Shown: positions 22,822 through 48,160 of the stretch, piece after piece | Position numbering within the stretch: the first letter of the stretch is position 1 | Layout: each line of letters opens with the position of its first letter | NCBI GenBank assembly: GCA_008632985.1 | Contig: QPGO01000150.1 | Coordinates: 124,001-184,329 of the forward strand | Source of the DNA: Psammoneis japonica | Taxonomy: Eukaryota | Reading direction: 5' to 3' | Length of the DNA: 60,329 nucleotides | The notes under the pieces: model-generated | Databases searched by the model: none | Seen by the model: the letters and a program-made list of their open reading frames with translations, nothing else | Told to the model about the DNA's origin: nothing | Position numbers and translations under genes: made by a program

Positions 22822-25204
22822 GCTGAACTATGTGGCAAACGCTGAAGTTCACCTTTAGCTGCATCAGTGAAGTGATGCGCTTGCTTTGATCTCCGATCTG
22901 CAGTCTGCATTGGGGTTGTATGTAGAACGTAGAAAAATGTACGAACATCTCTGTACCGGTACACATATTTTTTTGAAATTTGAGAAACCCGGATGTCACA
23001 GCGGTTTCACCGCGCGGTTTCGGGGCGAACGGTGAATTGTGCTCATTACCCAAGCTCTCACCTCTTTTATTGTCTCCGCCCGCTGTCATGTCACCATGAC
23101 AATGGCAAAGGACCGAGACAATGAGAGTGTTGTTTTTACATTCTTTTATCATTTACGAGTCGTATTATATGTGGTTGATGCACACTGGGCTTATCCCCTC
23201 AAAATTCGATTCAGAGCGAGGTTTTGCCCCCATGCACAACGCATCGGAGCGGCATCTTCCGTTTGTTGTGATAGACAGCAGCTCGTTCGAGGTACGGGAG
23301 GCTTCCGGTGATACAAGTTGGAGTGCATATTTTCTCTTTACTGTTCATAATGCTAGTGATAATCTCAAGTGTCGCCGTTTCCATTGGGAGCCGAAACTGG
23401 TCACGTGTTTGTTGGATCGGAGAATGTGGTTTTCGCAAGGGTTGAGCACCGCCCAGAATCATGGCACGATCGAGTTGCTGAGCGTTGCAGGCTGCAGGTG
23501 CGTGGAACCAAGTTTTCTCGGGTCTTGGTCTTCTCCTTGTCAGAATGGTTCTGTGCTCACAGCCGCCGTTTCTCAGTTGTGCACCAGAGGCCACCTTTGG
23601 GTCGGAAGCGCACTCCACTTTTTACCGCGCTTCGGAGAGCTTGCCTCTCATGGTCGTGTTAACAACCTTTCCGACAAGGACACTCGCTTTGCTCACCTTT
23701 GACGCATTCTATGACACGCAAAAGACTCCCGGATGAGGTGTTGCAGATGCAGTTGGTCGCTGAGCGTGCCAGAGACTCCAACAAGCATTGCACGCACCAA
23801 TGTTGTCGCAGTCCATCTGAAGCTGTGCCGATGGGGTGACAAAATGCCCAAGACAACAATCCACCACCTGATTAAGTTCCTCAACACCATGTTGCACATG
23901 GTGCACACAGTCTAAGTTGGCGAGAAAGGTTGTTCTCAAACACCAGGTGCCTGGCCTTCTCACACTGTTGCAAGCAGCAACTCAAACAATGCACCTTGCT
24001 TGCACACGCCTGCAGTGGCAATTGAGAGTTGCAATCTTTGAAGACTGCCCTTGCAAGCATCAGATGTCTTCACCAAGTGTGCAGATTTCTCATCAATTTG
24101 CCATTGGAGTCAAGCACTTGCTGGATGGAGTTTGCCACGGCTCAATGTCGTCCTGTTCGTGGGCGAGTCGGAAGACTTTGGATTGCCTGCAAACAGCTGT
24201 GAAAGTGACCTTCTTGCAGCAAGATTCTAATGTCATAGTCTGTGAGCATCTCCTTCATTGTGAAGAAGTCAAAATCACTGAGGTCTTGCGATTGAATCGC
24301 CTGGATCCTTGATCCATTCGGCCGATGGTGGATTTCTCGATGACAAATTGCATGGTTGATCCGAGTGGTTTCGAAAAACCAAATTTTTGGTCTGTGTGAC
24401 TCCACTCAGGAAATGACATTGCACAATGCGGCAGTTCAACATGTTGGGGAACTGATGGATGCAAGGTGCTTCAAGCATGATGCCGAGCAAACAACTGAGA
24501 TCAACGGAGTTACAACCGCGGCATTGGTGCTGCCAAGAAATTTGATGCCAACAACTGGCACATTCTTTGCGCAGAATTCTACACAGATGAACTGGGAGAA
24601 ACGCGGCGAGCAAGATTCTGTCCGCCATTGTCAGCCACATTGATGATGATGACATCAGCACAACCCAGACCCAGGAACTGATGACACATTGCCTCAACAA
24701 CACCATGAAGTGCAACACATCTCATTTTTTCTGGGTCTGGGGGGATTGCATGAAATGCAGTTCGCGCTCGTCACCTCATGTTGATGACCGTTCCATGAAA
24801 GAAAACATTTTTGTGCGGTGATGCCGTGCATTTTTCACAGATCTTCTGTTTCGCAAATTCCCAATTCCTCACATTTGTGACGCACCCGATCATTTTTTAC
24901 ACAGACAAACATGCTCACCGTTCTCTCTCGCAAACCGCTGTGATGTGCGTCTTCTTTCGCTTGCTCTCGCGGTTTGCATCTGCTCATGCACAGGACATTG
25001 GGGTCTTGATGCAGTCTGGCTGCCATGGGACTCATTTGAACTTGTCTGTCACAACCAATCTCAAGTTGCCGATGACCTGTGACCCGCCTCTTTCTGCCAA
25101 AGAAGATCACGGACAGCTGCCGCCGCTTCCCAACACACTGCAAAAAGGCGTGTTCCAGCCCCACACCACAGGTGGTTGGCAATCATCTGTCATGCAAGAA
25201 GCCG

Positions 25205-25395
25205 GTTTTCTTTGCAGTTTGGCACACTGGGCTCATTCAAATTTGATCATTTCAAAAATTGAAAGGTGAGTGCACACAAAAAATCCTTTGATTCAGGAAA
25301 AACCCGACTTTGAAGGAGTTTGTTGCGCCAAATGCAAAAACGGGCTAGCGATGGGAACCCAACCTGTGCACCTCGTCACCTGGGGAGCTGGAACA
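25205..25395 (+). repeat. Dispersed repeat shared with about 39053-39245
   Basis: Both carry cagtttggcaca..ttcaaatttgatcatttcaaaaattgaaaggtgagtgca.acaaaaaa ... tgcaaaaac..gatgggaa..cctgtgca..gtcacctgg. Confidence 0.75.
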
Positions 25396-25444
25396 TGCCA
25401 AACAGACACAAAATGAATGAAGTGAGATGGCCTTTGTGATGCCC

Positions 25445-26070
25445 TCCATGTGATTTGAAAGGCAGTCAAGACACTTTCTGTCTGTGCCATGCAGGAATCC
25501 AAAGATTGTCGAGGTGCTTTGCTTGGGGGGTGCGGAAACCTGTTGTTTCTCATTGCTTGGCCCCAAAGATTTTCCCCAGCAATGAAAACACATCATTTGT
25601 GAAGTGGCTGTGACAATCAACTGCATGTTTAAACAAAGTTTTCAGCTGTGCTCAGTTCTCACAAAACTGTGCAAATGACAATCATGCCATTTTGAAGTGG
25701 CTGAGCTTGGCTCTTGCTCAAAAAGCCCACCACAAAGATGCGAGCGACGTTCTTGCTGTCCCTTGTCTCACAAAACCAATGCAAGCCAAGACCTTCTGCA
25801 GTTTGAACAGCCAGCCAGCATGACCAAGAACATTGTCTTTTGCTTTGATGGCACCGGGGGCAGAACCAGAAACACAGATGTGTAAGACAATGCAATTGCG
25901 ACCCAGACAAAGACACAAAAAAGGACCCAGCAACCTGGCAAATGTTGCAAAAGCACATTTGTTGTTTGGGGAGACTTTGACAGGGGGAAACGCCAAAAGA
26001 ATCATGCCCCAAACTCTCTCTGCAGCACATCGGGCCAGCCAGGCTGCTCTTTGCCACTCTGGCGTTGGCT
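25445..26070 (+). pseudogene. Hypermutated truncated duplicate of the DUF2235 gene 5' end and upstream region
   Basis: ATG at 25820 gives MTKNIVFCFDGT. NLANVAKAHLLFG and QAALCHSGVG correspond to QVSLYYSGVG in the intact gene. The upstream DNA matches 26455-26882. Confidence 0.85.
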
Positions 26071-26487
26071 CCAAGGGTCTTTGTTGGTGGGTGTCAGGCA
26101 TCACTTTAAAAACTGAAGTGGACAGCCACAGAGTCAGTCTCTTGCCCATGAACTGGCTGAAAATTGTGTGCCTCAGCTTGGCCAAAAACAGCGCCTTGAG
26201 TGCCGCCACCACGCCAACAAGCAACTGACAACTCAAGGAAACAGCTGTCGTTGGGAAAACCCTGCTCAGCCACTTCATCGGGGATGGCTGCACCTCACAA
26301 TCTAAGTGCATTTAGGTTTGCATTGACAGCAACAACACTTTCTATTAGGCTCAAAGTGTTGACACCGCATGCATCGTTGCATCGAGATTTGTTCGAACGA
26401 CACACGAAGGAATGAAGCAGTTTATGTCAGACGGTCAAGACGGGTCCTTTGTTTTATGTGATTCGAAAGACAGTCAAGACACTTCCT

Positions 26488-26690
26488 TTTAACGCCATGC
26501 AGGAATCCGAAGACTGTCAAGATATATTACTTAAGTCACAGAAATTCTTTGTTTCTCGTCGTTAAGTAATATATTTCACATGATCATTTTCAGCATTTAA
26601 CGCAATGCAGGAATCCGAAGACTGTCCAGATGACGTACTATTGAGTCAGAAACCCAATGTTTCTGGCGTTAAGTAATGGATTTCCACATT
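26488..26690 (+). repeat. Two imperfect ~108-bp direct repeats upstream of DUF2235
   Basis: tttaacgc.atgcaggaatccgaagactgtc.agat ... gtttct...cgttaagtaat occurs at about 26488 and 26596. Confidence 0.75.
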
Positions 26691-26882
26691 TAAGTGATTA
26701 TCATATAACTGAATGTTTGAATGAAAATTTCAAATGGCGTGAAATAATCGCACCATTGAAGTGAACTTGGTTCTTGCTCAGGAAGAAGCCTCTCACGAAG
26801 ATGATGTGAAGCCTATTCTCACTCTCCCTCGTCTCACAAAACCAACACAAACCAAGACATTTCTGCAGTTTGAATAACCAAA

Positions 26883-27974
26883 ATGACCAAGAACATTATC
26901 TTTTGCTTTGATGGCACCGACCAAGAACCCAGTAAGGCGGTGCAACCAAGCGATTATGATCCAGAAAATAAAAAGCTTAAGGATCCCGGTAACTTGACCA
27001 ACGTTGCCAAATTACATTTATTGTTTGGAGGCGACTTTAGAGGAAGCGACGTTAAAAGAACTACCTCAAACTCTCTCTACGGAATATCGGACCAGGTTAG
27101 TCTTTACTATTCTGGCGTTGGTACGTATGGGGGGCCCGTTCGTCAGGTGCCCAATCTGCTTCTAGCATTGACTGATGTGAAAAGCATCATCAACGAAGCT
27201 CTTGAGGATCTCCGCCGCCTCTACCATGAAAACGATAAAGTCTTTGTGGTCGGATTTAGTCGTGGTGCAGCGATCGCAAGGCTTTTCTGTGAAGTGGTGG
27301 ACGGCAAGGCTGACTTGTCTAACGTCGAAATCGAGATGTTGGTTTGTTTCGATACCGTAGCTAGTATTGGCATGCCAGATTTTAGCACCGAGAACCGTCC
27401 GGAAGCTAAAGTTCTGCGTGAAAACAATTACAAGATTGCAGACAACATCAAGCAAGCCGTTCACTGCGTCTCGATGGACGACAAGCGCCGTCACTTTCAG
27501 CCTACCTTGATGAACTACGAGGACAAAGTGACAGAAGTTTGGTTCGCCGGTAGTCACACTGACATTGGGGGAGGCTACTTCCACGACGGTCTGTCAGATG
27601 TCGTTCAACAATTTGTTTTGGACGAGCTCAAGAAACGCAAGGTGGGTCTTACCATTCTTCGTGACTACGAGGTTGATTTCGCAAAGATAAATCATGAAAC
27701 TCGCAAAGAAGGAGTTGTTGTTGAACCCGATGACATTAAAATTCGGCCGAATGAACTTGACACCTCCCATGAGCAACCAATGATGCTTTGGTGCTATCAT
27801 CGACGAGTCGTTGTCATTGAGGGCGACAAGATTGTTCATGACAAACTCCCAATCGTCCACCACTCCGTCGAGGATCGCATCAAGGGGCTATCTAACTATC
27901 GCCCTCAGAGCCTCCTTGGACAGCCTCATAAGGTGCTATACGCTGACGGGACAACTCGTACGTTCAACGTTTGA
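26883..27974 (+). CDS. DUF2235 / Tle1-like alpha/beta hydrolase
   Basis: Intronless 363 aa with KNIIFCFDGT, TNVAKLH, YYSGVGT, VGFSRGAAIAR, FDTVAS, HCVSMDDKR..F.PTL and EVWFAGSHTDIGGG. Confidence 0.92.
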   Translation: MTKNIIFCFDGTDQEPSKAVQPSDYDPENKKLKDPGNLTNVAKLHLLFGGDFRGSDVKRTTSNSLYGISDQVSLYYSGVGTYGGPVRQVPNLLLALTDVKSIINEALEDLRRLYHENDKVFVVGFSRGAAIARLFCEVVDGKADLSNVEIEMLVCFDTVASIGMPDFSTENRPEAKVLRENNYKIADNIKQAVHCVSMDDKRRHFQPTLMNYEDKVTEVWFAGSHTDIGGGYFHDGLSDVVQQFVLDELKKRKVGLTILRDYEVDFAKINHETRKEGVVVEPDDIKIRPNELDTSHEQPMMLWCYHRRVVVIEGDKIVHDKLPIVHHSVEDRIKGLSNYRPQSLLGQPHKVLYADGTTRTFNV

Positions 27975-27982
27975 ATGGACAC

Positions 27983-28393
27983 ATGAAGATTCTCGAACCG
28001 GGTTATTCAGAACGTGTTACTGTCTGGGCGAACAAACGTTACAACCATAGTCGCTTCTTGCTGCGACAAGGCGAACGATACCGCTTTACTCCGGACTTGA
28101 ACGGCAGATGGAACGATGGGCCTCATGTTTGTGATGCTAGGGGATGGGATCGCTGGCACTCTCTTCCCTTTCGCCCTTTGAAACATTTGGGAGGCGCCAA
28201 CTGGTTCTCTCTTGTTGGAGCTATTAAGGGGGGCGAAGAAGAACTCTTTGAGATTGGCGGCGGCCCCATTGAATACGAGGCGAAAAGCAGTGGTGAGTTT
28301 TGTCCGTTTGCCAACGATGCAAAGATGGACTATTACGACAATGGAGGTTACATTGATGTTGTGGTCACGTGCCTGCCGCGATCGCGTTTGTAG
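27983..28393 (+). CDS. Small beta-rich partner protein of the type accompanying or fused to bacterial DUF2235 proteins
   Basis: ATG lies 8 nt after the DUF2235 stop. Motifs V.ANKRYN, GERYRF, W.DG..C..GW, ANWFSLVGAI, FEIG and GEFCPFANDA..YYDNGG.I.V.V. Confidence 0.7.
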   Translation: MKILEPGYSERVTVWANKRYNHSRFLLRQGERYRFTPDLNGRWNDGPHVCDARGWDRWHSLPFRPLKHLGGANWFSLVGAIKGGEEELFEIGGGPIEYEAKSSGEFCPFANDAKMDYYDNGGYIDVVVTCLPRSRL

Positions 28394-29485
28394 AGAGACG
28401 AGGCTTGCTACTTTCACTCGTACTTGATGCATGGTTCATTTGACTCGTACTTGATGAATAGTTCATTTGATGCATATATTTTATTTGATGCATAGTAAAA
28501 TTACGTTTAAAACTTCCTCATTGTGCATCCAGGCTTTTTTGCTAAAGAGACTCGGATGTTTCGTGCGTGCTCGTCATGCGACAAGACGGACACGCATTGT
28601 GTGATGCAAATCTCGCACGGTGATAATGACCGCCCAGTTAGTTCTCTACCAGGCTAGCAGCGAGACTGCTGTGGCCAGCTCTCATAAAGATCACAGCCGC
28701 TACGTTGGCCATGCAATGTGTGTGAAAGATTCTGCCACAGCAAAAGATTTGACAGACCTGGATGTGCATCTTTTTCTCACAGGAGCCAGGAGTGGTGGTG
28801 TCCCAAACACCAAGAAATCACAACAACACAGCAGCAACATTGCTTTGGAAGTTGTGCGGTGGCATTGGTGGAGCCACAAATGAAGTTCAAGGGATGCCAA
28901 CCTGTGGGTTTCTTGTTCAAAGTGCAGGCATGCCACTGTTCTGACCACACGCTTGTGTTTTTGGTTGCTTTGTCACTGAGCTGTCATTGATGAAAGCTTT
29001 GGATGTGGTGCAGCCTGATGTTGGACCACTGCAATGCAGGTCGTTTTGCTTTTGGTGTGGTCATTCAGTTTCAGAAATGTGGTGTTGCTGATGGTCAGGA
29101 GAGAAAGATGACTTCATCAGAGTGCACGAAATGTTAAAAATGTGCAGATTTGCATGATGACAATTTGTCAAAACATTGCAAAATGTTGTTGTCATGTGAT
29201 GACAGGCCAACCTCTGGTCACAAGTTTGGTGCACCAATGTTGCAATGACTCACCAAGAATTGTGTGTGCTGTTTTTCACCACATCCACATCACCATTTCT
29301 GCCTCCACCTTGTTGCCATGTGCCAATGCACGATTGCATTGCCACACAAACCTTGGTTTGTTAATTTTCGCAAACATCATTTTAAACAAGAAAAACATGT
29401 CATTGGTCAAGTCAATTCCTTGTCACATCTGCAGTGCAATGACCAAGTGCCATGTCAACTGTGTGCACATTTTCTTGCCACAACT

Positions 29486-30742
29486 CTCTTAAACTGAGCC
29501 AACAATCATCATCGGACTCGTCTTCATTGGACTCGTCTTCATTGGATTCGTCTCCTCCGTCGTTCGTTTTTCCTTTTGCGCCTTCCTCCTGCTCATCATT
29601 GTTGCTGTCATCATCCCTGCTGCTCTCTACCATCAGGCTGTTCATTGCCTTCACCTTCTCCACATCACCGGTCGGTGCTGTCTTCTTCTTCTTTTTTGCT
29701 TCTCCGGACTTCTCGCACTCGTTTTTCTTGATCTCCGCGTGCCACTTTTCAAACTCCTTGCCCTCCTTGGAGTCTCTGTCTTTCATCACCTCTTTGCACA
29801 AATTGTTGAACCGAATGATTCCGTCATCTCCCCAAGACTCTTGTTGTTTCTTTGGCTTCGTGCACCAAGGGGCAGGCCTTGTTTCTTCGGGCTCCATTTC
29901 CTCACCCAATTCTTCCACCGCCTCCTCCTTGTTCCTGCATGCCCACACCTGCCAACAATTCTCCACAGCCAATGGCGCCAAAGCTTCGTCACCTGCCGCA
30001 AACAGCTGTGAGACCTGTGCATTCCCAGTTTTGATGGCGCAACTCCATGCCTGCTTTTGCTTGGTTTGAGGCAGGATGTGATCACAGAACCACTTGTGTG
30101 CCTGCTTGTTCCTTCGTTTGCCACCGGCGACAGTGTCCAGGCCAAACGGATCCCATGTCGGCACAAACGGGACATCATTCTCTTCATTCTTGTCACGGCT
30201 TGACTTTGTCCTGTTTTGCTTTTTCCTCCTGACTGCCGCCTTGAGTTTCTTTTCTTTTTCCTTTCCCTCTTCCTCAGCGACAATGCCCACATGGACAAAG
30301 CACCACCGCCATCTTCTTGTGAGACACACACAACTCTCGAATCACACACATTGGTCACTTGACTTACGGGCCATTGCCTCCACCCCAACAGCCAAACACA
30401 CCGTGTTTCTGCGATTGTCAACTTGCCTTTTTACCGCCTTTTTTGCCCATTCCTCCCAAGTTCCTGACCAATTTGAAGTGTCCATGTTGCCATCAGCAAT
30501 CTGTTTCTTGACAAACATTGAGTCCTCCCATTGCTTGCCAATTCTGATGGACTTAGAAACTTCACCTGTGGAAAGAGATCATTTCTAGCCACCTTCTCTG
30601 CTTCTGATTTCAGTGCACCATGTGCTGCCTGCGCACCTGTTCTCTTCAACACTGCCCGAAGTCTTGGGCTCATTGGCTCAATGGTCTCATTTTTCTTTTT
30701 CTTCTTTGCCGGTGGTGCTGGAGACGACATCTTGATCTTCAC
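29486..30742 (-). pseudogene. Decayed transposon-associated ORF (DEA..L..EN.W / WG..G..RFN.L..V..DR family)
   Basis: Segments VARNDLFPQVKFL, GDEALAPLAVENCWQVW and SWGDDGIIRFNNLCKEVMKDR, with an acidic tail; frame-broken. Family recalled from diatom repeat proteins, not verified. Confidence 0.5.
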
Positions 30743-31453
30743 ACGGCAACAATGAGAGCAGCGTCACTGTTCGACAGTGCAGCTGTTGTCTGGGTCGTGT
30801 TGAGACAGCCAGCCACTCCATTTTTCTCCATGACATTGCACGAATTGTTGTCAGTGACACTGAAATTTGAAAATGCATTCACACATGACAATGAACAGTC
30901 CAACTTGCTTTTTGATGTGGCTGTCATTGCGTTCCAACGGAGATGACATCCTTCATTTTGACAGCAAATGAAAAAGAACAATGTCCGCTGTAAATGCCAG
31001 ATGAAAAATCAAAATGCAGACATGCCACGCCTGCAAGAATCATCCAAATCTGGAAGACAATGCAATGTTTGCCATTTTCCCGCCATTTTTTGCGTGTTGT
31101 TCTTCTTTTCCCTTCTCATCCACAAGACAAGGACGTCGAGTGTGAGTCTTGATGAAGGCCCTGTCAACATTGACCAGAGAACTGTGAGGCAACGGCATCA
31201 GCATGCAGACTTGGTCAGTTGCTGGCAGCTTGATCACAAACAAAACAGCTGGCTTTCAACGCCTGAGAAGACTCAGCACTCACCCAAGTTGCGGGTTGTC
31301 CCTGTCGAAGCAATTGGGGACAATGTTTTGGTTTGTGAACAATGTCCAGGAGCAGCAGAAGTGCAAGAAAAGGCCCCATTTGTTTGGGCTGCACAGGACA
31401 GAAGGAAGTGTTGGTCAGATTTGTTTCTAAAATGGGATGCGCGTGTCAATCTG

Positions 31454-34400
31454 TCATTCACTCACAGTGATTGCCCAACTCTTTCTTGCAAACATGATGA
31501 ATTTGATCCTTTCAGAATCAGCAAAGTCATTGCGGCACACGTGAGGCAGTGCGGTGCGAGCACCTTCCATTGCTTTCATTCTGATGTCTTCTTCGGAAAT
31601 TCCAAGATGAGCTTCTTCCTGATCGGAAGGCTTTCCCAACCACCGTTCTCGTTGTTCTTGGGTTGTAAGGTTGCTTGCAAAGAATGTGCTCGCGCGAGTC
31701 TTTGCAGCATGCTTGTCCATTGTGCACATGTCGAACACAGCCGACAATTTCTTCCATTGTTTGACAACCTGGAAGAAGGTTGCAAGAGTGAAGGGAATCA
31801 CTGTGTCCCCCCCTTCTTCGTTTTTTGAGAGCAAGGCCCAAAGATCAATCAGATTTTGGAAAAATTGAGTCGTCCCAAAACAACTGTCGTGCCACTCTCC
31901 ATCTGGCATCCAGCAGCAGCCCAACATGATTTGGTCGAACCCATGATTGTCGAAATCAACAAGTTTCTCAAACTGCTGCTTGACTCTCTTGACGAAATCT
32001 CTTGCTTTCACACTGCAATTTAAGTGCAGATCAGGATGTCCGTCTTGGAGAGAAACTGTTGGAACAACATTTGTGATTGTTTTGTTGGATTCCACAAATG
32101 CCATTGCACTGGCCTCATCTTGCCTGTGTTGGTCGGATGATGCTGAGGCCACCCCCTTCTCAGAGCATGGTTCTTGAGAAGATGGTTGCCTTGCATTGAG
32201 CGGATGGGTCATCCCCAGCCACAGCACAATTTTGTGTTTCCCCGTTGGCTTCGTCACTTGCGAGACAATCTCCTGAGTCGCTGTGGTCCTCTTCACCCTC
32301 GGAGCAATGTGCAACTTGGTTGTGCTCATCGTCAATGGGCTCTTCGCTTTTGTCCTCTTCACCCATGCAAGCAGTTGGAAGTTCGCTTGTTTTCTCGTCA
32401 ATTGACTCCTCCTTGCAATCGTCACTTTTGTTCATTGCGAATGACAACAAATCACCGGCGGCCTTCTTCCTGTTAGAACGAGAAAATCAATGTGACAATG
32501 TCAGTGCAATCAGACAAAAAACAAATGTGATTGCCATGAAAAAGCAACCTCTCTTTGCCATTCCAGTTCGGCTTGAACTTCATCAGTCAACATGAGTGGG
32601 ACTGGCTCCCGTTCACACCTTCCAAACCGCTTGATCATTGATTGCCCATCAGAGAACAAGAGCAACAGATGCTGTCGACAACAAAAGACATCGCAGATTC
32701 CCATCTTTTCACGAGCTGCAATCAGGTCACACAGCAAAGACTCTGGGCCATTCTTTCCACAGTCTTCCAAATCAAAATCACCCTCTGTCCATTCCAAGAG
32801 TAAATCGTGCTCCTCCACCGGGACCTTCATTTCCTCCATTTGCTTCGCCACTCCCAACTTGGCCACCGGATGGACAAGATTACGAAGGTCAGGGTGAGGA
32901 TGGATCCCTGCCACACAGCATCAATGTCTGCATGGAGTTCATGCATCTGAACTCTCCACAATCAGCACCTGTGTGATCCCATGTTTGGACCACGGTTTCA
33001 AACATGTCCTCGATCGCCTTGTGGTCAAACGCTGGCTTGCCAACATTGTCATTGATCCAGTTGATGACAACAACCAGTCCGCCAACAAGCAAATCCATCA
33101 AACCGTCAAGTTTCATCCCGCACTCTGCCACATGAACCTCCTTGAAATCGAGTCCCGGGCTCTGCATGCGTTGGTCATTGCGATCCCCCGCAATGCTGCC
33201 GAATGGCCTTGCAGCTTCTCCGAAGCATTGAAGGACACGATCGCCAGCCGCGCTCCTCCACCGGGACCTTCATTTCCTCCATTTGCTTCGCCGCTCCCAA
33301 CTTGGCTGCCGGACAGACAAGATTGCGAACATCAGGGTGAGGATGGATCCCTGTGCCACACAGCATCAATGTCTGCACAGAGTTCATGCATCTGAACTCT
33401 CCACAATCAGCACCTGCATGATCCCATGTTTGGGCCACGGCTTCAAACACATCCTCGATCGCCTTGTGGTCAAACGCTGGCTTGCCAACATTGTCATTGA
33501 TCCAGTCGATGATGACAACCAGTCCGCCAACAAGCAAGTCCATCAAACCATTGAGTTTCGTCCCGCACTCTGCCACATGAACCTCCTCGAAATCAAGTCC
33601 CGGGCTCTGCATGCGTCGGTTGTTGCGATCCCCTGCAATGCTGCCGAACAGCCTTGTGGCTTCTCTGAAGCAATGAAGGACACAATCACCAGACACGAAA
33701 GGACGCTTCACAGCATCTGTGTTGCACAACAAGCAGCAAAAATGGGAGAATCCGGTTTGACACCCAGCCACAACGGCGCAATGAAAGCAATCACACACAC
33801 CAACCTCGTCGAGGTTGTCGATGATTGCCGAACAACTGCACGAGAAATTAAAGTCCTTCACGATGGCAAACGGAAGACGTTTCCTTGGCATGACAACAAC
33901 GGGATGCTCAGCTGTGTCAGACGGAAGATTTGGTTTGCCAATTTCCTCTTCCACCCACACAGAGTGAGGGTCAAGGAAAAAATCTTTGATGTTTCTGTGG
34001 GTTGGCTTGCCCAACGGAGGACGACAAGGGCCACGGCATCTCATCATTTCTGCAGCACATGACAGATCAAGTTTTGCGAAATGACCATGCACACGCGATC
34101 GGAACTCGGCACACCCATGCACCGAACTGACACAGTTTCCAGCATTGCCTTTGGATGCAGTGACAACCTTCAACAACCAAGAGTGACCAACAGCGTCTCG
34201 CAGTGATGAGCAAAGAGCACCAGTCTTGGTGCACCCATCCATGTCAAAATCCTCTTTGTCAATGTGCAGCTCGGTTTTCGAATTGACGGATTTTTTGCCG
34301 GATGACGAGACGCACTTCACTTGAATTTCCACGCCTTCCCTTCTGATGTGCTTGGCTCCAACCATCTTGTGGAGCTCAGCCGCGAAAAGACTGTCACGGC

Positions 34401-36560
34401 ACGGGTCATGGAAGGAGCGCATTTCTTTCAAAGCAACAAGATTGATTTGGTCCTCGCAGAGTTGCGTGGCGTCCAAGATTGAGGCTGTCATCACCTGCAC
34501 ATCCTTTGGAAGCTTCTCCCACTTGTCCCTGCCAAAGACAGAACCAGGCATGTGAGCAGGTCCCACTTCAGCTAACTTGCCATCTGTGACTTCGTAATTC
34601 TGGCCACAACAACCAAAACAGATCTGACAGCACAGCTTGCACTCTGGTCCATCCCTTTTTTTGTTCGGCTTGCCATGTTCCAACACTGCACGGAGTGTCG
34701 ACGACACACTGAATCGCAATCCAAAAAAGCATTTCTGACACATCTTGTCCGTGTGTCGCAAACAAGTGACCACGCCAGAAAAATGAGAGGTTGACTGGGT
34801 CGGGCAAGTGATCGCAACCATCGATTCTTGCGTTGGATCATTGGGAGCTGCGCCATTTTCAAATCCATGCACAAACTTGCGGAGGTGATTCACCAAGCAG
34901 AAATTGGAGATGCTGTGGAATGACTGGTGCTTGACACAGTTCCCCTTGAAGGAACTGGAAATGGGGGTTTCCTCAAAGACGACAAGGTGAGAATGTTGTG
35001 ACTTCACCTCGCCCGGAATCGCAAATGGAGATGGTTCAGGAAACACTTTCACAAGCTCTTCTTTTGTGAAATTGTCTGGCAGAGGAGGAGGTGACTGACA
35101 AGTTGCACCGAGGGTCAGCCACTTTGTTCGGGAACATTCAAATTGTTCCTCGAGAGTCGGCACATCTTGAAGAATCAGCGATTTGTTCTGAGAAACATCA
35201 GAAGGTTCGCCATCTTTGGTGTTTTTGAGACCATGGCTTGAGGAGCAAAGGGAGGCAGCTGAAGAGGTGGCAAGAAGAACAGAAGAATTGGAGACAAGAA
35301 GAGGAGGACAAACAATCAATCAAACAATGTGGTGGATTCACACCATTTGGATTTTTTTGTTTCCGAGCATTTTTCGTAACGGATGGAACTGCATTGCCGA
35401 TTTCTTTCTTCTTGTGCTGAGTGGCAAAGTCACGAAGCCTGGCTTTCCACATGGCCTCAAAATGATCCCTTGTGGCCTTGCTTTTGCCGGAATCATCAGC
35501 GGCAGAAACCACACGATCAATTTTCACACATCTTAAAAGAGTCTCATTGACATGTGTTGCGTGCATTTGTTCTTGCTCAACATCGAGCATCGCTGGTCAC
35601 GTGGGCTTTTCCCAAGAATTTTTGTGTTGGCGGAACAACGACTTTACCAATTCAGGGAAGGACACAGGGCATTCGTCTTTGGTTGTCTCACAGTGACCAA
35701 GAGCCAGGAAATTCTCCAAAAAGTTGATGCAAGTCAATGTCTCGTCACATTCGCCGAACAGGGAGTGCAGCCAACAATCGCAATCACCATTCCTTTCAGG
35801 TGTGCACGGCAGAATCTTGTCACGAAGAATCAAAAAACCAATGTGAAGGTGTTGTGCACAACGCAAAACCTTCCCTTCAAAACTTCTCAGCTCAGTGTGC
35901 TTGACAAGTGGCTCTCCCTTTGGGTTGCACAATCCGGGATCATGGAGAAGCTTGCACAACATGGTGATCTTTGCCATCATGTTGGTTGCAATGTCTGTTG
36001 ATTTTGCCTTGTTGCCGATGACTTTCATGTCCTCCACTTTGGGAGCACGGCGATGCTCCAACGCATGAGGATGTTTGGCGCCTTGACTGGAACAACTCCA
36101 TCTTTTTGCGGAAAGAAAGTGCAGCAAGCTCTTGTGCCCAAGTTCCTTTGCAACAACATGGTTCACAGCCATTGGCTCTGCAAAAAAATGAGGTCTGCCC
36201 TTCGACTTTTGCCACACATGGGCAAGCGCGATCCAATTTGGAGAGGGATCACAAGTGGAATCGCGGTGAAACTGAACCTTGGATTTCACCATCTTGATTG
36301 TCGCTTTGACACGGCTCCGCTCGTTGCCATCGATCACTCCAAAACCGTTGGCAAAGAGAGATTCAAACACGGCCTCCTCGAGGTGGGAATCGTTGTTGTC
36401 TTGCGACAGAGAGGTGACCGACAGGTCACGCGGCGCCATGGTTGCTGTTCCAACACCAAAAAATCTGGTTTCTGTGGAAATGCACCAGAGTGGTGTGTGG
36501 GAGAAGTTGCACACGCGCCTGGCACGATTTGGAGTTTCAAACACAAAAACCCACCAGACG
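31454..36560 (-). pseudogene. Large decayed ORF(s) of unknown function inside the TIR element
   Basis: Long same-strand frames (323, 134, 714, 130 and 361 aa) with protein-like composition but almost no Tyr. Confidence 0.5.
32806..33692. repeat. Tandem duplication of a ~443-bp unit
   Basis: Units of about 32806-33247 and 33249-33692 both begin cg.gctcctccaccgggaccttcatttcctccatttgcttcgcc and end gaaggacac.atc.ccag. Confidence 0.9.
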
Positions 36561-39500
36561 CGTGCGCAACTTCTCCCAGGGAAATCCTGCGTGAGATTGC
36601 ACCGGGAAAGGGCAACACAGAGTGCAGAATTGATGGAAGAAAACATTGTGTGGAACCGCATCAGGAGAAAGGGTGCATGCACTGGAAAACAACATGGATT
36701 TCTGCATGTGCGTTAAGGTGCGTAAAAAACACGTGGGGGCCTTCAAGTGACGCACGCGAACAATCACAAAGAAACATTCGGAAATGGAGACAGCACAGAG
36801 AGAAGTCAGAAACATGGATCCAAAACAAAGTGACACACAACAGAAAAAAAAAACAACAACAAGAGATGAAGGCGACGGCGACGGGATCGATGAAAAAGAA
36901 GGATTTGGATGGAAAGACACCGGAGACGGTGAAAACAGGCGGCACCAAGATGAGGAAGGAAGAGAAAAATGGGACGGGCAAAATGAAGAAAGAGAAAAAG
37001 AAGCTGACAACATGACGTCAAGAGGGGAGCAGCAATGCGATTCAGCACTTCGAGGGACCTCTTCCTCTCGATGATGTTCACCCAAAATCGCAAGAAATGC
37101 AGTGTGGCTTTTTTGGAACGGCGACGAGGAAACATCCAACGCGGCAGCGGCACATTTGAAATTCTTGCAAGAGAGTGGACAAGACACACGGAATGAAGAG
37201 GATGATGCGGACGACTGGGCAAATTGGAGTGCAGTTGTTGATCAAACAATCAGCGCACACTTTGCATGATGAAAATTTCATTGCACGCAATTGCAGTGTT
37301 TGGCTTGTCGTCAAAGATCGTCAATTGTTGTGAAAAAGGCAGAGCACAAAAATTAAAAAACATCCGTGTTCAAACATGAAGAACAGCAGGAGATTGACAA
37401 TTGGCCAAATGACAAAAACCGTCATGTGCAGACAAGTGGATTTTAAAACACAGCAACACATTTTTGTCATGTGTGCAGACATTGCGATGTCGTGCACTCT
37501 GATGCACTGGTTGAGCCAGCATGCAACTTTTGCACTTGCTTGCTGCAGGCAGCCTGGCTGCTGTCTTCCCCAGAGGATCAGCTGGAGAGCAGCTTGCCAG
37601 CACAGATGGCAACTGGTTGACACCCCAGCAATGGCGACAACAAGCAAGTCCTCAAGCTTTGGCCTTGGAGAAGAAACTCTTCCCAAGCAGCACATTTGTG
37701 GCTTGTCAGCAGGAGGACAACAGCTTTGAGCAGAAGAGCAAGCAGCAAACTTGTGTCACCACACAGCAAACAAGATTTCATCATGGAAATGCACAGAATG
37801 AGTGCACCACTCTGTGGCCAGAAGAGGGAGGTCTGGAATGTGATGATCACAGGACAAGAAGAAAAATGTGGCTCATGTTCCAAGCTCATGTTGCAGTGCT
37901 TGTTCTCATTCCCTGTCACACTTCATGGAACAACCACACTCTGATGCCTCAGTCAATGCTCTGAGAAAGGCCTTTTCAACTGCAAAGGAAAAACTGGAAT
38001 GTGTGCACTGAGTTTGCCAAACAAATGGAATGCCCCATGCTCTTGGAGCACATGGCATCTGTCTGCCTGTTCTCTGGCATCTGTCTGTCAGCTCAAGAGA
38101 GCAGAGTTGCTCTGCCCCCTGGCACTGAGCCATTTTTTCTTCTGCTGAACACATCTTTTTTTTCTGGCAGCCCTGCCACTTGACAATGGCGGGCACATGA
38201 TGCACGCCAAAGTGGCAGCCACACTCACTCAACAAGCACGACTCAGTTGCAAGTTTGACAATGGCGCTGCTTGCGCTGCTGGCATCAAAAAGTGCAGTTT
38301 GGTTTGACGCAGTGCCTCACTCTGCTGCAGCATCATGGCCATGCTTGGAGCTTGTGAAGTGAAAAGGATGTGTCACAAAATGACAATGGAAAGAAAATGT
38401 GAGAGACTCAGAAGTTTTGAGAGAACAACAAATCCCTCAGCAGCCAGTGTCCTCCAACTTGCCACAAAGCACAGGTGGATGAGCACCCCCTCTACCTCCT
38501 CTTGATGCTGGCTTTCCTCATTGTTGCTGTTTGTTTGATGTGCTTGAAATTGTGCATGATTTTTGCAGGAGCAACAAGTGCCAAGTGCAGCAGATGACAA
38601 GAGAAAAAAGATGCCAATGCAAAGACTCTGCTGCTCCACCATCAATTTGCGCACATGCCACCAACTCAACAAAAATTCATGGAATTTTGCAGTGCTTTTC
38701 TTCATGCTTTCAAGCAAAAAGTCTTTGTTTCCTCTCAACGTCAACACATCTGAATGGTGCAAAAGAGGCTCAGCACATGCGTGCTGATGACCTGGCTCTG
38801 TCTCCAATCTTGTGTGATGGGTTCAGCCAAAGCGCACCCACTGTCTTTGTTGTTGAGCCAAACATCAAATGCGCGCATGCAGACATGAGATCACAGATTG
38901 ACTTTCCATGGCAAAAACAAAAACACAAAAGTGGTGCACAAAGAAGAAGACAAGAACCAAGAGAAGCAGAGACAAGGCACGTGAGACTTGGCAGTGTGCC
39001 TCTTTGCTGTTGCAGCCATGGGTGATGAGCAATCCATCATGTGAGAGGCTAATTTTCTGGACAGTTTGGCACATTCAACTCCTTCAAATTTGATCATTTC
39101 AAAAATTGAAAGGTGAGTGCAGACAAAAAACCAAAAGTTTTGTGTGTGATTTGGGAGAAAACCAATTGTGAACAAGTCCATTGTGCTGAATTGCAAAAAC
39201 AGGCCAGTGATGGGAATCAAGCCTGTGCATGTCACCTGGAGCTGGGGCAGCATCAAAGTGCTGGAAGGGCCAGTTGGTTGCAACAACCAGCAGCTTCATT
39301 AAAAATGCAGACAATTTTCTTTCCCTTGGCATGGCTCTGCTGTGCAGCAGCAGCTTCCACAATTCCGTTGCTGATGCACATGTGGTGGAATGCCAGAAGC
39401 GTCCAAGTGCAGTCTGGCAAACTCATCCATTGTTCATCATGGAGCTTAAACAGAATGGTGGTTGCATGGAGTGTGCTTTTCATGTTCCTTGAGAATCTCC

Positions 39501-39749
39501 TCACAATCACGGAGTGTGGATGTGCACTCCATGAAAAGTGGCCTCCACGAAATGTGCAAAAATGGCCTTGTTTCTTGCAGAATGGCTCAGAGGAATGTGA
39601 GAAAAAAGGCTTGTTCTGCACACTTCCATGAAGTCTCATTTGCTGCACACACCTTTGCACTTGTTTGTTGTGGCATGGCCAGCATGACCACTTGGGTGCT
39701 GAGGCCACCAAGGCCTGCATTGAAGTCTGCCAAGAAAATTTCCAGAGTG

Positions 39750-40145
39750 GACGCGTTCCAGACGTAGGTGGGAATCCGTGTGACATTGGGCCCGTAGAAT
39801 TCTACGTGCGAGCTCCGTAGTAAAATTATACGGTAATTAGAATGTCAATGTTCGCCAACAGAAAATGAGGCAATTTTGCGAACGCACAAACTCGCACATG
39901 ATTGAAGTACATCGATTTTTACTTAGCCAGTTACATTCTTCAGACATTGAAGAATGTAACTGGCGCATTATTGTTTCTATAAATGCGTCATGTAAAACGT
40001 CTGGGGCTTCGCAAAACAGCAAGTCTGGACAATTTTTTTTAAATATCACACGTAGAAATGTACGTGCGAAACATACGACGGATGATAAAAATTATTTGTG
40101 TCACACGTCAGTACTACGAGCTCCCACCTAGGGCTGGAACGCGTC
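39750..40145 (+). mobile_element. Young 396-bp MITE with ~24-bp TIRs and 4-bp TSD AGTG
   Basis: GACGCGTTCCAGACGTAGGTGGGA ... TCCCACCTAGGGCTGGAACGCGTC, with AGTG at 39746-39749 and 40146-40149. Non-coding and retains about 28 TA. Confidence 0.92.
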
Positions 40146-43046
40146 AGTGGGCAAGCCATGAGGCCAGCACTTTCTTGCATCTCTGCTTTTGCAAGATGGC
40201 AGCCTGGAGCTCCTGAACAAAGGATGAGCAGCAGCAGCAAATTTGAGGTGCACAAGAAAGCCTTCATTCTGGACAGACAGTGCACATCCATCCAGCCCCC
40301 AGATGACTGGGCAGCACTGGCACTCTGGCTTCTGACAGCTTTCAGCATGATGAGGCAGCTCTGTTGTCTGGAGAGCAGCTTGAACAAATTTGGCAAATGT
40401 GCAGCACCAAACCCACAGAGATGACACTCAGACAGAGACGCACACTCAGCAATTGCAAAATGCAGAGTGAAGCACCAATTTCTTGAGGCTCAAACATTTC
40501 TGGCGCACGCTGCTGCACCCAAGCTTTCTCCCACGGCAAGCTCCACATGTGTGGCTGTTGTGCATGGCTGTTGCACAGCAACACCACACTGCCTCAGATG
40601 TGTGTGGTGCCATCCTTTTGGCTTTTGTGGCAGACGCCCTTCATGCCACAGCTGTGCATGCTTTCAAGTGCCAGGCGTGTGCCTTCTTGGCCAAGCAGAG
40701 AGCTGTGTGCTTGAAACTTTCCTTCTCTTTGGCATTGAGCCATCTCTTATTGATGTTTGGTTGAGTCCCACCCACTGAAATTTTTGCCCAAGGAGTGTGC
40801 TGCGTGTGGCGCAGGTGCCGAGCATCGTGGCGTGCCCTGCTTTTGGAGCAGCTGCGCCGAAGCTTGCTTGGCTGCCATTGTTGTTGACAGCATGGGCACA
40901 GAGAGGCCAGTGGCTGCCATCCCTCCCTTGAAAGATGAGGATGCTTCACTCAAAGATCTGAGAAGCAAAGGCAGGCACCTTTGACATGGCTGGTTGCCAC
41001 ATCCCAACCAGCGGTTAAAACTTGCTTTTCTTCGACCATGTGCTGCGGCATGTGGGGCGGTTGCGTCACCACAGCGACACGCATGGGCACAACATTATTC
41101 GCGCGTCGCAGTTGCTGTGAACACCTACCACAACACTTTTTTTTGTGAGCGACAATGAAACGCTTGCCGCTTGCGTCGCCTTCGTCGATTCTTTATACAA
41201 GGTTAGACACTCATGAGATCGTCTCCATTCGTTCATGTGATGCATGTGCCTTGGCTCTGTCTCGATAATCACCGTGAGACTTTTTAAAAACTGGGTCAAT
41301 GCCTTGACGCGTGCGCTGTTGCTGCGTACTGTTTTGATTTTTTGTTTTGCATGTGCTCCCGTCGATCCTCTCACAGTTTCTATTTGTCGCAATGCTGTAC
41401 CGTTTCGTAGGTGGTATGGAACAATGCCCATGCAAGCACCATTCGGTTTTTCACTTCTTGTTCTCGAGGTTGGCGTCGCAATGTATAAAAGCCATCAAGG
41501 ATACCACCACAACCTCATGCGTTTCACGGGCACTAAAATATACGACAAAGACGTGCATCTATCGTTCAGGACACGCAATCGGAGTCAAGATACTCAGAGT
41601 CGCAATTAAGCAAGTCACTCTTGTCGTAACTTGCATGATCGTCATTCGTAAAGACAGCATACGATCCTTTTCGCCGTCGATGCGTCACCAAAGGGCGGGT
41701 ATTGACGACTCGCAGACGGCGGCTGTGGTATGTACACGGAAAGAATTGCAACATGATGTGTAAGGTGGCAGTGCTGGGAAGGTACATTATTGTTTCCGCC
41801 GTTTTGTGGGCCAGGTATTGCTTATCCATATTCTTTTGCTCATTCGGATGGATACCGGCTCCGTTTGGTTACATTATCAAACTCGATGGTATGGTGGTGA
41901 AGGAAATGAGATATCCAACATGTTATCTGAGCGTATCATTACTTTGGCGGGGGCTTGCGACTGTTGGTTTCTGGGAAAGAAATGAATTGTGGAATTGTTC
42001 GATGCTGCCGATACTACTGTACCTACTACGACGTGGACGAGTATATCGACCTAAAGAGAGTGAGAACAGTAGTTCATTGATTGTTGGTGGCTCGCCATGT
42101 CCTTTTTCATATGGCAACATTATGGGTTGGGGGAGCGAATATACTCAACCAATGTCTGGGCGTAGCGCCTTTGTCGGGTACAGGCTTGCCGTAGTGCGTT
42201 TATTCTGGAAACAGAATTGGTATGGAAGAGAGAAGGAATGAAGCTAGCCCAACTGACGGCTTTACTGGTCTGTCGAGAGATTTCCTTGCAGAAGAAGAGT
42301 GCAACTACTGGTATATGCAAGGGTTCTCGCTGTATGAATACGCATACGCTAAAAAGAATGCTGCAACGAGGAATAACACCGGTGACGACGAGCAGCGTGG
42401 AGCCTATTCAGCATGTATTGATCGCTCCGTCTTGTGTAAGTACTCGTGGATGACCTGTGTATTGAAGGAACCTCACTATTTGTACATTGTCGCACTCACT
42501 AGTATTTTTATATTGAATGATTATAAGGATACTGCAGTCGCATCGGCTATAATGCGTTTCGTCCTCAAACCCTACTATATCGCAAGAGCAATTCTGTCGC
42601 CCGGCCAAAGACTTGCTGCGAAGAATACGACTGCCTCTTGCCCATACCCGCGAGAATGACAATTTGCGCCACAACAATAAGCCGTGGTGGTACTTGATGT
42701 GTATGCTTGTGGACTATGCAGCTTTCGATGCCGGCATATTATCGGTGATAATGAGGAGGTCTGGATAATTCGTCAATGTCGATTATCAACCAAAGTGTCG
42801 ATTGCTCCTTGCGACTGTTGCGAAGGTGATGTCATTTTTGTGAATCCCCGTACGCTACGACATCCGTCGTACGTCAATAATGTGGGGCATCTTCCGTCTG
42901 TAGCTTGGCAGCCTGCATCTGCAACTAGATATGTTGGGTTTCAACAATTGTACAAGGAGGATTCAATTGAATGTAATGCCTTTCTAGTTGTTATTCCTTT
43001 ATGAAAAATAGACAAATCATTTACATGCATTACACTACGAAAGTGT

Positions 43047-44135
43047 TCACACCGCAAACACTTCCTGCGATCGTCGCCCTCGCTTCCGACTCCACTCAAA
43101 ACCGATGCTGTCGAGTTTTGCAACGCGATCATCTTCCAACTCGCCTTTTGCTTGCCGCACGCGTTGTGTGTCCACCCACTGTCCAAGTTGGGGATTCTTC
43201 TCGTAATGGCGCGGAACATTGCAGTCTCCACGTTCATCTTTGTACTTGATCAATTCATCAAATCTTTGATCCCATCGTCCAGCATGAGGCGTGCTCCAAA
43301 CAAATCCAATTCCGTCCAGTCGTTCCTTGCGGGGGAGTGACAACTCATCGTTTGCGTGCAGCTTTCGTTATTTGTCCACCCAATATCCAAGCTGGGGATT
43401 TTTCTTGTAACGATGCGGAACCTTGCAGTCACCATGTTCATTTTTGTACTCGATCAATTCATCAAATCTTTGATCCCATGCGGTGCGTTTTGTGCTCCAA
43501 ACAAATCCAATTTCGTCAAGCAGTTCTTTGCGGCAGTCTGGCAACTCGTCTTTTGCTTGCAGCGAGCGTTGTTTGTTCACCCACCGTCCAAGCTGGGGAT
43601 TTTTCTCGTAACGTTGCGGAACGTTGCAGTCACCATGTTCATTTTTGTACTTGATCAATTCATCAAATCTTTGATCCCATCGTCCAGCATGAGGCGTGCT
43701 CCAAACAAATCCAATGCTGTTGAGCTTCTCGATTTTGACAGGGGAAAGTTTTTTATGCTTCTTCTTCTTTCGCTGATTATTGACCCATGTGGAAAGCTGT
43801 TTCTTTGGCTTGTATCGAGGTGAAACTTTTGCATGCTTGGCAAAGTACTTGTCTTTACGTTTCACAAGGCAATGACTGTGTCGAGCCTTGAACTCCTTCA
43901 ATGCCGCAAAACGAGCATTCCAAGCGTCCTCACCGACACCTTCGTTGTCGCTTCTGGCAACCGCATCATTGTATAAATCTTCTTCATCTTCCTCGGTCCA
44001 ACAATCGCTTTCAGGAGCGAAATCGCTGACAGCGGTAACATCAGACTCCTCCTGGGCTGCATCTTCACGGCTAAAGAGGGGTTTTCTTGGATCACGTCGA
44101 GCATTGCGTCCAGGGTTGCGTCGGTGGCGCGGCAT
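43047..44135 (-). pseudogene. Helicase-associated (HA) domain repeat protein (4 repeats) with one in-frame TAA
   Basis: Repeats of WDQRFDELIxYKxExGDCxVPxxYxKNPQLGxWVxxQR...LDxIGFxW. TAA at 43368-43370 replaces the conserved Gln and the same frame continues to 43047. Confidence 0.85.
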
Positions 44136-44434
44136 GGTGAATTGTAATAACGCAATCGAGTTGACAGCGAAACGGGATTAATGAACGCTTCAACAAACAT
44201 CGAACGATAGCGTGTGAGGAGCAGCTGCTGTACAAGACTCATCTGCGTGCGTTTGATCGACAATCGCTCAAAAATTTGGTTGATTGCCGGCGATACTTCA
44301 AACGAGCAAGCCGCCACAACGGGCAAGCGAAACGATCCACTTGCACTTCTGTAGTCATACACCGGTATGGCTATCTCGCACCACACAACGTCAACCGTTA
44401 CAAATCTATCTACGGTGTTCCAGGTGGCTTGACA

Positions 44435-45050
44435 AGTAGGGCTACCCTCTCTCTAGCTAGAGCTAGTAGAGCTACTCTCTACTCTAGCTCTACTCTATAC
44501 AGCTACTCTCCTAGTAGCTAGAGTAGAGAGCTAGTAGCTACCGGTAGTAGTAGTCTACAGTATGAGTTGAGACGACTGCAACTTCTAGAGTAGAGTCTCT
44601 AGTTTTTACATAAGCCGTGATTCGGGGAGCAGTGTCAGTGCAGTAACTAGAGCGTTCCGAAATGCTTCTACAAGCTAGAATTCCGTTCCTTTCTCTTCTT
44701 CTTTCTCCTTTTCTACCTTCTTTCTCTTCCGTAACCTGGGCTCTCGGGCGGGTACATAGTTTCCCCACTCTCGGGTGGAGGACTCTCGAGATCGGATGCA
44801 CTCCTGGAACTTTGGCAGGGCTACTCTCATTGGCTCTAGCTAGCTAGCTAGAGAGCAAACTCTACTCTAGCTAGAGTGGAGCTAGTAGCTACCGGTAGTA
44901 GTAGTCTACAGTACTAGACTATGAGTTGAGACGACTGCAACTTCTAGCTACTAGAGTAGAGTCGCCTAGTTTTTACATAAACAGTGATGCGGGAAGTAGG
45001 GTCAGCTCAGTGCTCTAGCTAGTAGAGCTCCGAAATGCGTCTAGTAGCTA
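44435..45050. repeat. CTAG/TAG/CTCT-rich low-complexity tract containing a duplicate of the neighbouring gene's 3' end
   Basis: About 44530-44812 matches 44881-45198. The copies differ by short CTAG-type insertions. Confidence 0.8.
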
Positions 45051-48121: not shown

Positions 48122-48160
48122 TCTAGATAGTGATGATAGTATCTCACCATGTCTAAACCA

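Follow-up and report, generated by a model that had tools for sequence, protein, structure and literature searches.

Introduction

Hypermutation at the dinucleotide TpA has been described in Bigelowiella natans. According to the main text of a preprint, mutation-accumulation lines of this rhizarian acquired de novo TpA>TpG/CpA changes at ~1000 times the background rate in two silent integrated viral regions, and in just some of the lines (Mettrop et al., bioRxiv 10.64898/2026.01.13.699255). The changes reported there were almost exclusively A>G/T>C, all at TpA; active regions were mildly depleted (TpA 3.3% compared to 6.0%), 124 TpA-depleted clusters were counted in ~95 Mb, and an ADAT2-like protein was proposed as the agent (Mettrop et al., bioRxiv 10.64898/2026.01.13.699255). 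That main text makes no use of the words context, trinucleotide, flanking and diatom, and a limited literature search found no further report of TpA hypermutation. This article concerns a 60,329-bp stretch of Psammoneis japonica DNA (assembly GCA_008632985.1, contig QPGO01000150.1, positions 124,001 to 184,329), referred to below as the window, which alternates between DNA of normal TpA (TA) content and sharply bounded domains that are nearly free of TA. The domain at 28703-39749 is the focus. It can be said with high confidence that these domains have undergone a TpA-specific, domain-restricted mutation with a bias toward a pyrimidine 3′ of the changed adenine.

In B. natans, as the main text of the preprint presents it, and in the window alike, A>G/T>C change is confined to TpA and to certain regions, TpA has been depleted over the long term with a gain of CpA and TpG, and the activity appears to be episodic (Mettrop et al., bioRxiv 10.64898/2026.01.13.699255). 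The targets in B. natans are described as silent or foreign DNA. In the window they are high-copy repeats, miniature inverted-repeat transposable elements (MITEs) and host genes in duplicate, and viral genes were not seen among them. The host is a diatom-like stramenopile rather than a rhizarian, and 44% of the 60-kb window is nearly TA-free. The window looks like a second lineage for TpA hypermutation, and it adds a spectrum of flanking bases, a one-hit rule, the joint decay of CpG, and repeats and duplicates as targets.

Two better known processes bear comparison. Fungal repeat-induced point mutation (RIP) likewise consists of saturating, dinucleotide-specific transitions in repeats, extends over kilobase domains, spreads into the adjoining DNA and is linked to cytosine methylation. 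RIP makes TpA from CpA, however, whereas here the direction is reversed, TpA being lost and CpA/TpG gained. RIP also strikes all copies and creates stops; in the window, two copies of a tandem trimer and one member of each paralogue pair are spared, and no stops arise. The decay of CpG by deamination of 5-methylcytosine (5mC) resembles the present process in that a self-complementary dinucleotide in silenced DNA is struck once per site and yields TG or CA. It affects another dinucleotide and another base, and in the youngest mutated zone of the window it is the slower of the two (7% of CG compared to 69% of TA).

TA-Depleted Domains

The density of TA along the window alternates between ~40 and 1–5 per kb, where base composition predicts ~65. 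In depleted blocks the density is 1.2–5 TA/kb, compared to 38–57 in normal segments that span 1 kb or more, and the transitions fall within 50-bp bins. Two-state segmentation marked 1-5150, 6951-7750, 13101-18600, 18851-19350, 23401-26300, 28751-39750 and 40151-41000 as depleted, which adds up to 26.65 kb (44% of the window). The depleted set used for the counts below consists of the segmented domains of at least 500 bp (26,650 bp with 81 TA), with 43051-43750 excluded as weak. The change is confined to these discrete regions of the window. The loss of TA is accompanied by a gain of TG+CA, from ~135–160 per kb in normal DNA to ~190–230 in depleted blocks, and by a loss of CG, from 51–60 per kb to 15–44. 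The focal domain, 28703-39749, has 2.7 TA/kb compared to ~42 in normal DNA, 30 CG/kb compared to ~55, and 203 TG+CA per kb compared to ~140.

The direction of change can be read in a tandem trimer on the + strand at 5367-9370, with a unit of ~1,335 bp (copies 5367-6704, 6699-8037 and 8032-9370). In self-comparison the two outer copies are 99.25% alike and TA-normal, and they therefore provide the ancestral reference. The middle copy carries 43 private substitutions: 20 TA>TG, 12 TA>CA and 11 others, the latter comprising four further A>G/T>C changes, four CG>TG/CA, two CA>TA and a single transversion. Thus 36 of the 43 are A>G/T>C. The mutated zone, at 6864 to ~8127, is young and unsaturated. 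Within 6864-8127, 31 of 45 TA have changed (69%) compared to 4 of 54 CG (7%), and not one of the 45 TA has become CG. The zone covers the middle copy and runs over the copy junction into ~100 bp of copy 3, which favors a positional domain over the recognition of copies. A pyrimidine lies 3′ of the changed adenine in 25 of the 31 cases (81%), in agreement with the four-fifths that the initial annotation of this DNA, made from the sequence by eye, had put forward. It had also listed AAC, CAT, CAC and AAT as the contexts of the few A>G changes outside TA; the 3′ pyrimidine is present in all four, and the site given as AAT is in fact a second AAC.

Comparisons outside the trimer agree. Six pairs of normal and mutated paralogues contain 204 TA in the comparison, of which 135 have become TG or CA, 3 have become CG and 16 are unchanged; 14 of these 16 are in pair B, whose mutated member is just partly within a domain. 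In pair A (normal 10962-12896, mutated 15135-16988) 50 of 68 TA have been converted to TG or CA and 1 of 68 to CG, while 51 of 102 CG sites have become TG or CA. Within the focal domain a tandem duplication on the + strand at 32806-33692 (copies 32806-33247 and 33249-33692) shows 39 differences, of which 20 make up ten TG<->CA doubles and 12 are CG<->TG/CA. The doubles indicate that ancestral TAs were resolved independently in each copy. This is a real, one-hit mutation of TA to TG or CA.

The Flanking-Base Rule

The base 3′ of the adenine governs which TAs survive. With R for purine and Y for pyrimidine, RTAY presents TAY on both strands and is nearly extinct, while YTAR presents it on neither and survives best. 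The focal domain retains 30 TA: 18 YTAR (TTAA 12, CTAA 3, TTAG 2, CTAG 1), 6 RTAR, all of them GTAA, 6 YTAY (TTAC 4, CTAC 2), and no RTAY. The estimate by eye had been about 29, with roughly 18 YTAR, about 11 of the mixed classes and no RTAY, which the count of 30, 18, 12 and 0 bears out. As a baseline, 31,129 bp of TA-normal DNA contain 430 RTAY, 322 RTAR, 410 YTAY and 197 YTAR. Length-normalized survival in the focal domain is 0 for RTAY, 0.053 for RTAR, 0.041 for YTAY and 0.258 for YTAR, and in all depleted DNA (26,650 bp) it is 0.005, 0.069, 0.051 and 0.249, respectively. The chi-square for class is 53.5 in the focal domain (p = 1.4e-11) and 101.5 in all depleted DNA (p = 7.6e-22). The ranking RTAY < RTAR/YTAY < YTAR, which had been proposed earlier, thus holds after normalization to the TA-normal DNA of the window, and each of its steps is significant (RTAY vs mixed, p = 9.6e-6; mixed vs YTAR, p = 3.3e-9). 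Only 2 RTAY survive in depleted DNA where 368 are expected, and ATAT, GTAT and ATAC, with 297 occurrences in the baseline, have no survivors there.

Among single tetramers, TTAA survives best (0.40–0.57), often as TTAAA, and is the main survivor; CTAA and TTAG follow at ~0.3, GTAA and TTAC at 0.12–0.16, and CTAG survives at just 0.06. Arithmetic on these values fits an additive half-site model with mutation rates in the order ATA/TAT >= GTA/TAC > CTA/TAG > TTA/TAA. Among the half-sites of survivors, TAAA is enriched 3.6-fold and TAGA 2.6-fold.

Polarized events show which strand was struck. At mixed sites (YTAY/RTAR) the struck strand has the 3′ pyrimidine in a ratio of 11:3 in the trimer and 45:21 in the paralogue pairs, or 56:24 combined (p = 4.5e-4), so that these 56 of 80 sites and the survival classes both support the original proposal that TAY is preferred and YTAR spared. 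Pairwise competition gives Bradley-Terry strengths for the +1 base of 3.9 for C, 2.1 for T, 1.5 for G and 1 for A. By survival, unlike by these strengths, TAT ranks no lower than TAC. In the unsaturated trimer the fraction changed is 14/16 for RTAY, 14/21 for mixed sites and 3/8 for YTAR (RTAY vs YTAR, p = 0.02). The best tetranucleotide is TACG (23 changed, 10 not); the effect of the +2 base is weak and there is no preference for Y at −2. Survival does not separate an adenine followed by Y from an R at −2, since the two divide the tetramers in one and the same way, seen from opposite strands. The 3′ pyrimidine is taken as the determinant because RTAY is the most mutated class. Position −2 alone was rejected as the determinant, as it would make YTAR the most mutated, the opposite of the survival observed.

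The requirement for T on the 5′ side is far stricter. In the trimer, 29 of 84 adenines in TA changed compared to 4 of 517 others, namely 2 of 199 in AA, 2 of 185 in CA and 0 of 133 in GA (TA vs AA, odds ratio 52, p = 2.6e-15). Adenines in AA changed no more readily than those in CA or GA (p = 0.64). Off-target loss outside TA in depleted DNA is slight and limited to AAC (odds ratio 0.83) and GAC (odds ratio 0.86), which go to AGC and GGC. Along the middle copy, TG and CA outcomes alternate in 18 runs compared to 15.2 ± 2.5 expected, which means that the struck strands are not clustered.

Contents of the Domains

Copy number was estimated from public run X1, one sample from one study with the library type unrecorded. 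Contigs from X1 cover 29.0–37.5 kb at a summed depth of 2,000–25,000 over a baseline of ~55, which identifies a high-copy repeat family. By the same measure 37.7–39.1 and 40.5–41.0 kb are single copy, and there the depletion equals that of the repeat part. Within the high-copy part lies an open frame of 714 codons on the − strand (33178-35319); ~2e-6 such open runs are expected by chance. Cys and His abound in its product, in line with changes of Tyr to either residue. None of the 4,574 candidates scored is a homologue of this frame and it matches no Pfam family; weak Atlas leads point to Plavaka and Transposase_21 clusters at 0.82–0.83, below the 0.9 threshold. The frame is probably the coding relic of a repeated element. 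None of the 148 open reading frames (ORFs) of the focal domain matched a reverse transcriptase, integrase or transposase domain.

The focal domain ends at a young MITE (39751-40144, + strand, ~394 bp), which has ~23-bp terminal inverted repeats and 70 TA/kb, and past which the depleted DNA resumes at 40151-41000 (1.2 TA/kb, CG 15/kb; single copy by X1 depth). The element is unmutated although it lies inside a saturated domain. Its family is extremely abundant, with an X1 summed depth of up to ~85,000 compared to ~55, and by depth it amounts to roughly 1,500 copy equivalents; a 24-base word from it gave no hits in metagenomes. One X1 contig lacks the MITE and links 39745 with 40146 through 5 letters common to both, suggestive of an empty site and a 5-bp target duplication, and the insertion may be polymorphic. 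Two old copies of the MITE, 906-1234 and 1335-1737, are mutated, each differently. They lie in the depleted domain 1-5150 (2.9–4.9 TA/kb), along with FG-GAP and laminin-G gene relics: matches to FG-GAP_2 and Laminin_G_3 occur there in separate frames on the − strand at 2627-4770, probably a decayed host gene.

Several of the remaining domains overlie one copy of a local duplication. The old saturated domain at 13101-18600 (1.8 TA/kb, CG 23/kb) contains the mutated member of pair A, 15135-16988. The domain at 23401-26300 contains 25702-26068, the mutated paralogue of 26762-27121, which is the TA-normal member of pair C. The partly mutated paralogue at 18789-19350 has its normal counterpart, the TA-normal member of pair B, in the region of a PKD-channel-like gene at 21075-22837. 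In these local duplicates of ordinary genes just one member has been mutated. Two paralogues of a class-C G protein-coupled receptor (GPCR) with ANF_receptor and 7tm_3 domains, at 50406-53279 and 56932-59381, have diverged to 71% identity at the DNA level. Both are TA-normal, and hence not all local duplicates have been targeted.

Stops are less dense in the focal domain (0.025 per codon position) than in TA-normal DNA at 43751-53000 (0.036). Since depleted domains have few TAA and TAG, they are prone to long false or fossil ORFs, the 714-codon frame being one example, and long ORFs do overlap on both strands, e.g., 14754-16268 (+), 29415-30341 (−) and 35600-36712 (−).

Nature of the Mutator

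The observations show a TpA-specific A:T>G:C process that has converted nearly every TA in sharply bounded domains to TG or CA. Each TA is struck once and on a single strand; with the T-A step lost, the opposite strand ceases to be a target. The rate is set by the base that follows the mutated adenine on its 3′ side, C and T ranking ahead of G and then A over a ~3–4-fold spread. A rate that depends on this base alone yields the survival ranking RTAY < RTAR/YTAY < YTAR with TTAA as the main survivor. The domains presumably correspond to silenced chromatin, and the decay of CpG in the same places suggests that its cytosines are methylated. In diatoms, transposons are methylated through DNMT5a, as stated in PMC9998398. 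The mutator would be aimed at the state of the chromatin and not at sequence homology, and its activity appears episodic. The process is of one kind with the TpA hypermutation of B. natans.

The most likely chemistry is the enzymatic deamination of adenine in DNA to hypoxanthine, which would then be fixed as G at replication. The enzyme would read T at −1 and favor a pyrimidine at +1, with TACG as the best site. No stop codons arise from such a process, because TGA can come from TAA alone and TAG turns into TGG or CAG. Genes would lose function by missense substitutions (Tyr to Cys or His, among others) and by the loss of TA-rich signals, with fossil ORFs persisting. We put the chances of the whole reading, including a TadA/ADAT-like DNA adenine deaminase acting in silenced chromatin, at about even.

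The initial annotation had named a TadA/ADAT-like enzyme as a candidate and stated that TadA acts on a UACG loop; the site is given as U33-A34-C35-G36 in the relevant parts of PMC10586758 and PMC11472039. TadA, ADAT2-3 and the base editors derived from TadA share with the present process the conversion of A to inosine, read as G, and a requirement for T or U on the 5′ side, and UACG corresponds to TACG. The strict T at −1 and the first rank of TACG resemble this site. Other features fit less well: these enzymes are specific for RNA or single strands, and bacterial TadA, whose site sits in YUACGAA, strictly demands C at +1 and G at +2. In the window T serves as well at +1, +2 is weak and −2 shows no preference for Y. 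The accompanying statement that base editors favor TA contexts was too strong, as TadA8e is described with just a slight YA preference (PMC10586758). A limited literature search found no natural chromatin-directed DNA adenine deaminase. Stramenopiles possess uncharacterized deaminase families, including deaminase-SAM-Tudor proteins and LmjF36.5940-like deaminases with a Rossmann domain, according to the section of Iyer et al. 2011 (PMC3239186) that deals with them. These families are candidates for the mutator.

Enzymes of the AID/APOBEC group also carry out context-specific deamination against foreign nucleic acid. They deaminate cytosine and not adenine, and they work on exposed single strands and leave strand-coordinated clusters; the choice of strand in the window is interleaved. 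We know of no natural DNA adenine deaminase that is directed to chromatin.

A number of points count against a deaminase of this kind. A change of A is equivalent in sequence to a change of T on the opposite strand, TAY being the same as RTA. TadA-type enzymes need single-stranded loops, and here both strands of an apparently silent duplex have been struck in interleaved fashion; the fit to TadA is also partial in that TAT is about equal to TAC, G at +2 is a weak determinant and −2 lacks a Y preference. Neither a deaminase nor a polymerase domain was found when 263 ORFs of 90 aa or more, taken from stop to stop, were examined over the whole window, in agreement with what had been noted at the outset. 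The focal domain yielded neither viral nor transposase domains, and the notion of a defense derives from copy number alone. A mutator that never creates a stop codon is a weak means of killing genes. The baseline of 31,129 bp is drawn from the same 60-kb window and not from the genome, and X1 is possibly the source sample of the assembly itself.

The main rival is a thymine-centered lesion, which we regard as unlikely. A TET/JBP-type oxygenase or another T-modifier would mark the T in R-T-A as 5-hydroxymethyluracil (5hmU) or 5-formyluracil (5fU), which would mispair with G and give T>C, and the mutation would be a by-product of an epigenetic mark in silenced chromatin, like the decay of CpG from 5mC. 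It fits the symmetric sequence results equally well, the flank rule becoming "T preceded by purine", and TA loss does occur together with another mark-driven decay, CG>TG. 5hmU prefers TpA in dinoflagellate DNA, and 5-formyluracil mispairs. The weak resemblance of the 714-aa product to Plavaka and Transposase_21 clusters (0.82–0.83) would also suit this explanation, as leads alone. Oxidized thymines also give transversions, however, and the trimer has nearly pure transitions, with one transversion in 43 changes. The large differences in rate between lines of B. natans, as the preprint's main text gives them, are better matched by an induced enzyme than by a standing mark (Mettrop et al., bioRxiv 10.64898/2026.01.13.699255). 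An error-prone polymerase had been the second candidate of the initial annotation. In that account, Pol eta-like synthesis during repair of deaminated 5mC would place G opposite T at WA (W being A or T); CpG decay and TA loss do share the same domains. A>G at WA is a known error of Pol eta. A WA signature should heat AA, and AA is not hot in the trimer: AA (2/199) is like CA (2/185) and GA (0/133; p = 0.64), while TA stands at 29/84. Nor do TA events trail CpG events, 69% of TA and 7% of CG being changed in the young zone, and the near-extinction of RTAY (2 compared to 368 expected) would be hard to reach through rare repair patches. The polymerase was rejected as an explanation, and we consider it very improbable.

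The remaining alternatives concern RNA and the reading of the DNA itself. ADAR-like adenosine-to-inosine editing of repeat transcripts, followed by reverse transcription into DNA, is the least probable of all. A>G with a 5′ U preference does resemble editing, a likeness that is also raised in the Discussion of the B. natans preprint (Mettrop et al., bioRxiv 10.64898/2026.01.13.699255). Yet the mutations arose in situ in single-copy flanks, in just one member of tandem duplicates that lie in place and in a zone that spans the junction of two copies; both strands were struck, in interleaved order, and a search of the domain gave no reverse transcriptase. ADAR acts on RNA duplexes, has a graded 5′ preference and prefers G on the 3′ side, whereas here the requirement at −1 is near-absolute and the 3′ order is C, T, G, A. 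An artefact, in which true TA is read as TG or CA through systematic errors of base calling or assembly on modified DNA, must be considered since the sequencing technology of the window is unspecified, and modified bases can give motif-specific miscalls in long reads; we give it no more credence than the polymerase, very little. X1 contigs at an even depth of ~55 reproduce the TA-free sequence. They differ from the window at 3 positions in 26501-29142 and at 14 in 37686-39091, nearly all transitions, with TG<->CA doubles at 38506/7, 38557/8 and 36368/9 and with CA in X1 at the surviving TAs 38493 and 39447. These TG<->CA and TA/CA differences point, if indirectly, to recent, independent events. 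Strand-specific miscalls would mix TA, TG, CA and CG, whereas the products seen are clean (CG at 3 of 204 and 0 of 45), and paralogues and alleles resolve the same site differently, as TG or as CA. A plain difference in base composition owing to foreign origin is disfavored.

Other Features of the Window

The proteins encoded in the window include a PPR protein, UFD1, the class-C GPCRs (ANF_receptor + 7tm_3), the PKD-channel-like protein and a DUF2235-type protein, in long, nearly intron-free frames. The named relatives of UFD1 are all from diatoms, at 54–60% identity, and the best-scoring relatives reach 62–65%. Relatives of UFD1 in metagenomes occur on 5 contigs of 1.2–4.5 kb, too short for a test of the domains. 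An Rfam search of the window gave no matches.

A gene with repeated helicase-associated (HA) domains lies on the − strand at 43050-44177. Its 5′ part, 43051-43750, has 11 TA/kb with normal CG, and may be a weak or early domain. At 44001-45200, a region that includes a tandem repeat (44468-44812 / 44817-45198), there is a local excess of TA, with 79/kb compared to 66 expected, and AT is low (39/kb), a skew opposite to that of the depleted domains. A GC-rich block at 54000-55300 (GC 0.56–0.60) has many diverged internal direct repeats; it sits within long open frames on both strands and matches no Pfam family.

Significance

Depleted domains are likely to mislead gene callers and to skew repeat and gene calls that are based on dinucleotides. 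Any candidate enzyme must match the fingerprint described here: a strict T at −1, the order C, T, G, A at +1 with TACG best, TTAA(A) spared, one strike per site and no strand clustering. If the proposed reading is true, no natural enzyme known earlier than this agent would introduce A>G changes into the duplex DNA of the nucleus, and a DNA adenine deaminase would be of direct interest for base editing. The window provides a second case, from a distant alga and much closer to saturation, which suggests that such mutation is widespread. A natural adenine deaminase of DNA that is directed to chromatin, with T-A-C/T specificity and a TACG optimum, may serve as a mutator for genome defense or of heterochromatin, like RIP but inverse in direction, and may be common to stramenopiles and rhizarians and possibly ancient in the stramenopile, alveolate and rhizarian (SAR) assemblage, a proposal that we offer as tentative, with the odds somewhat against it.

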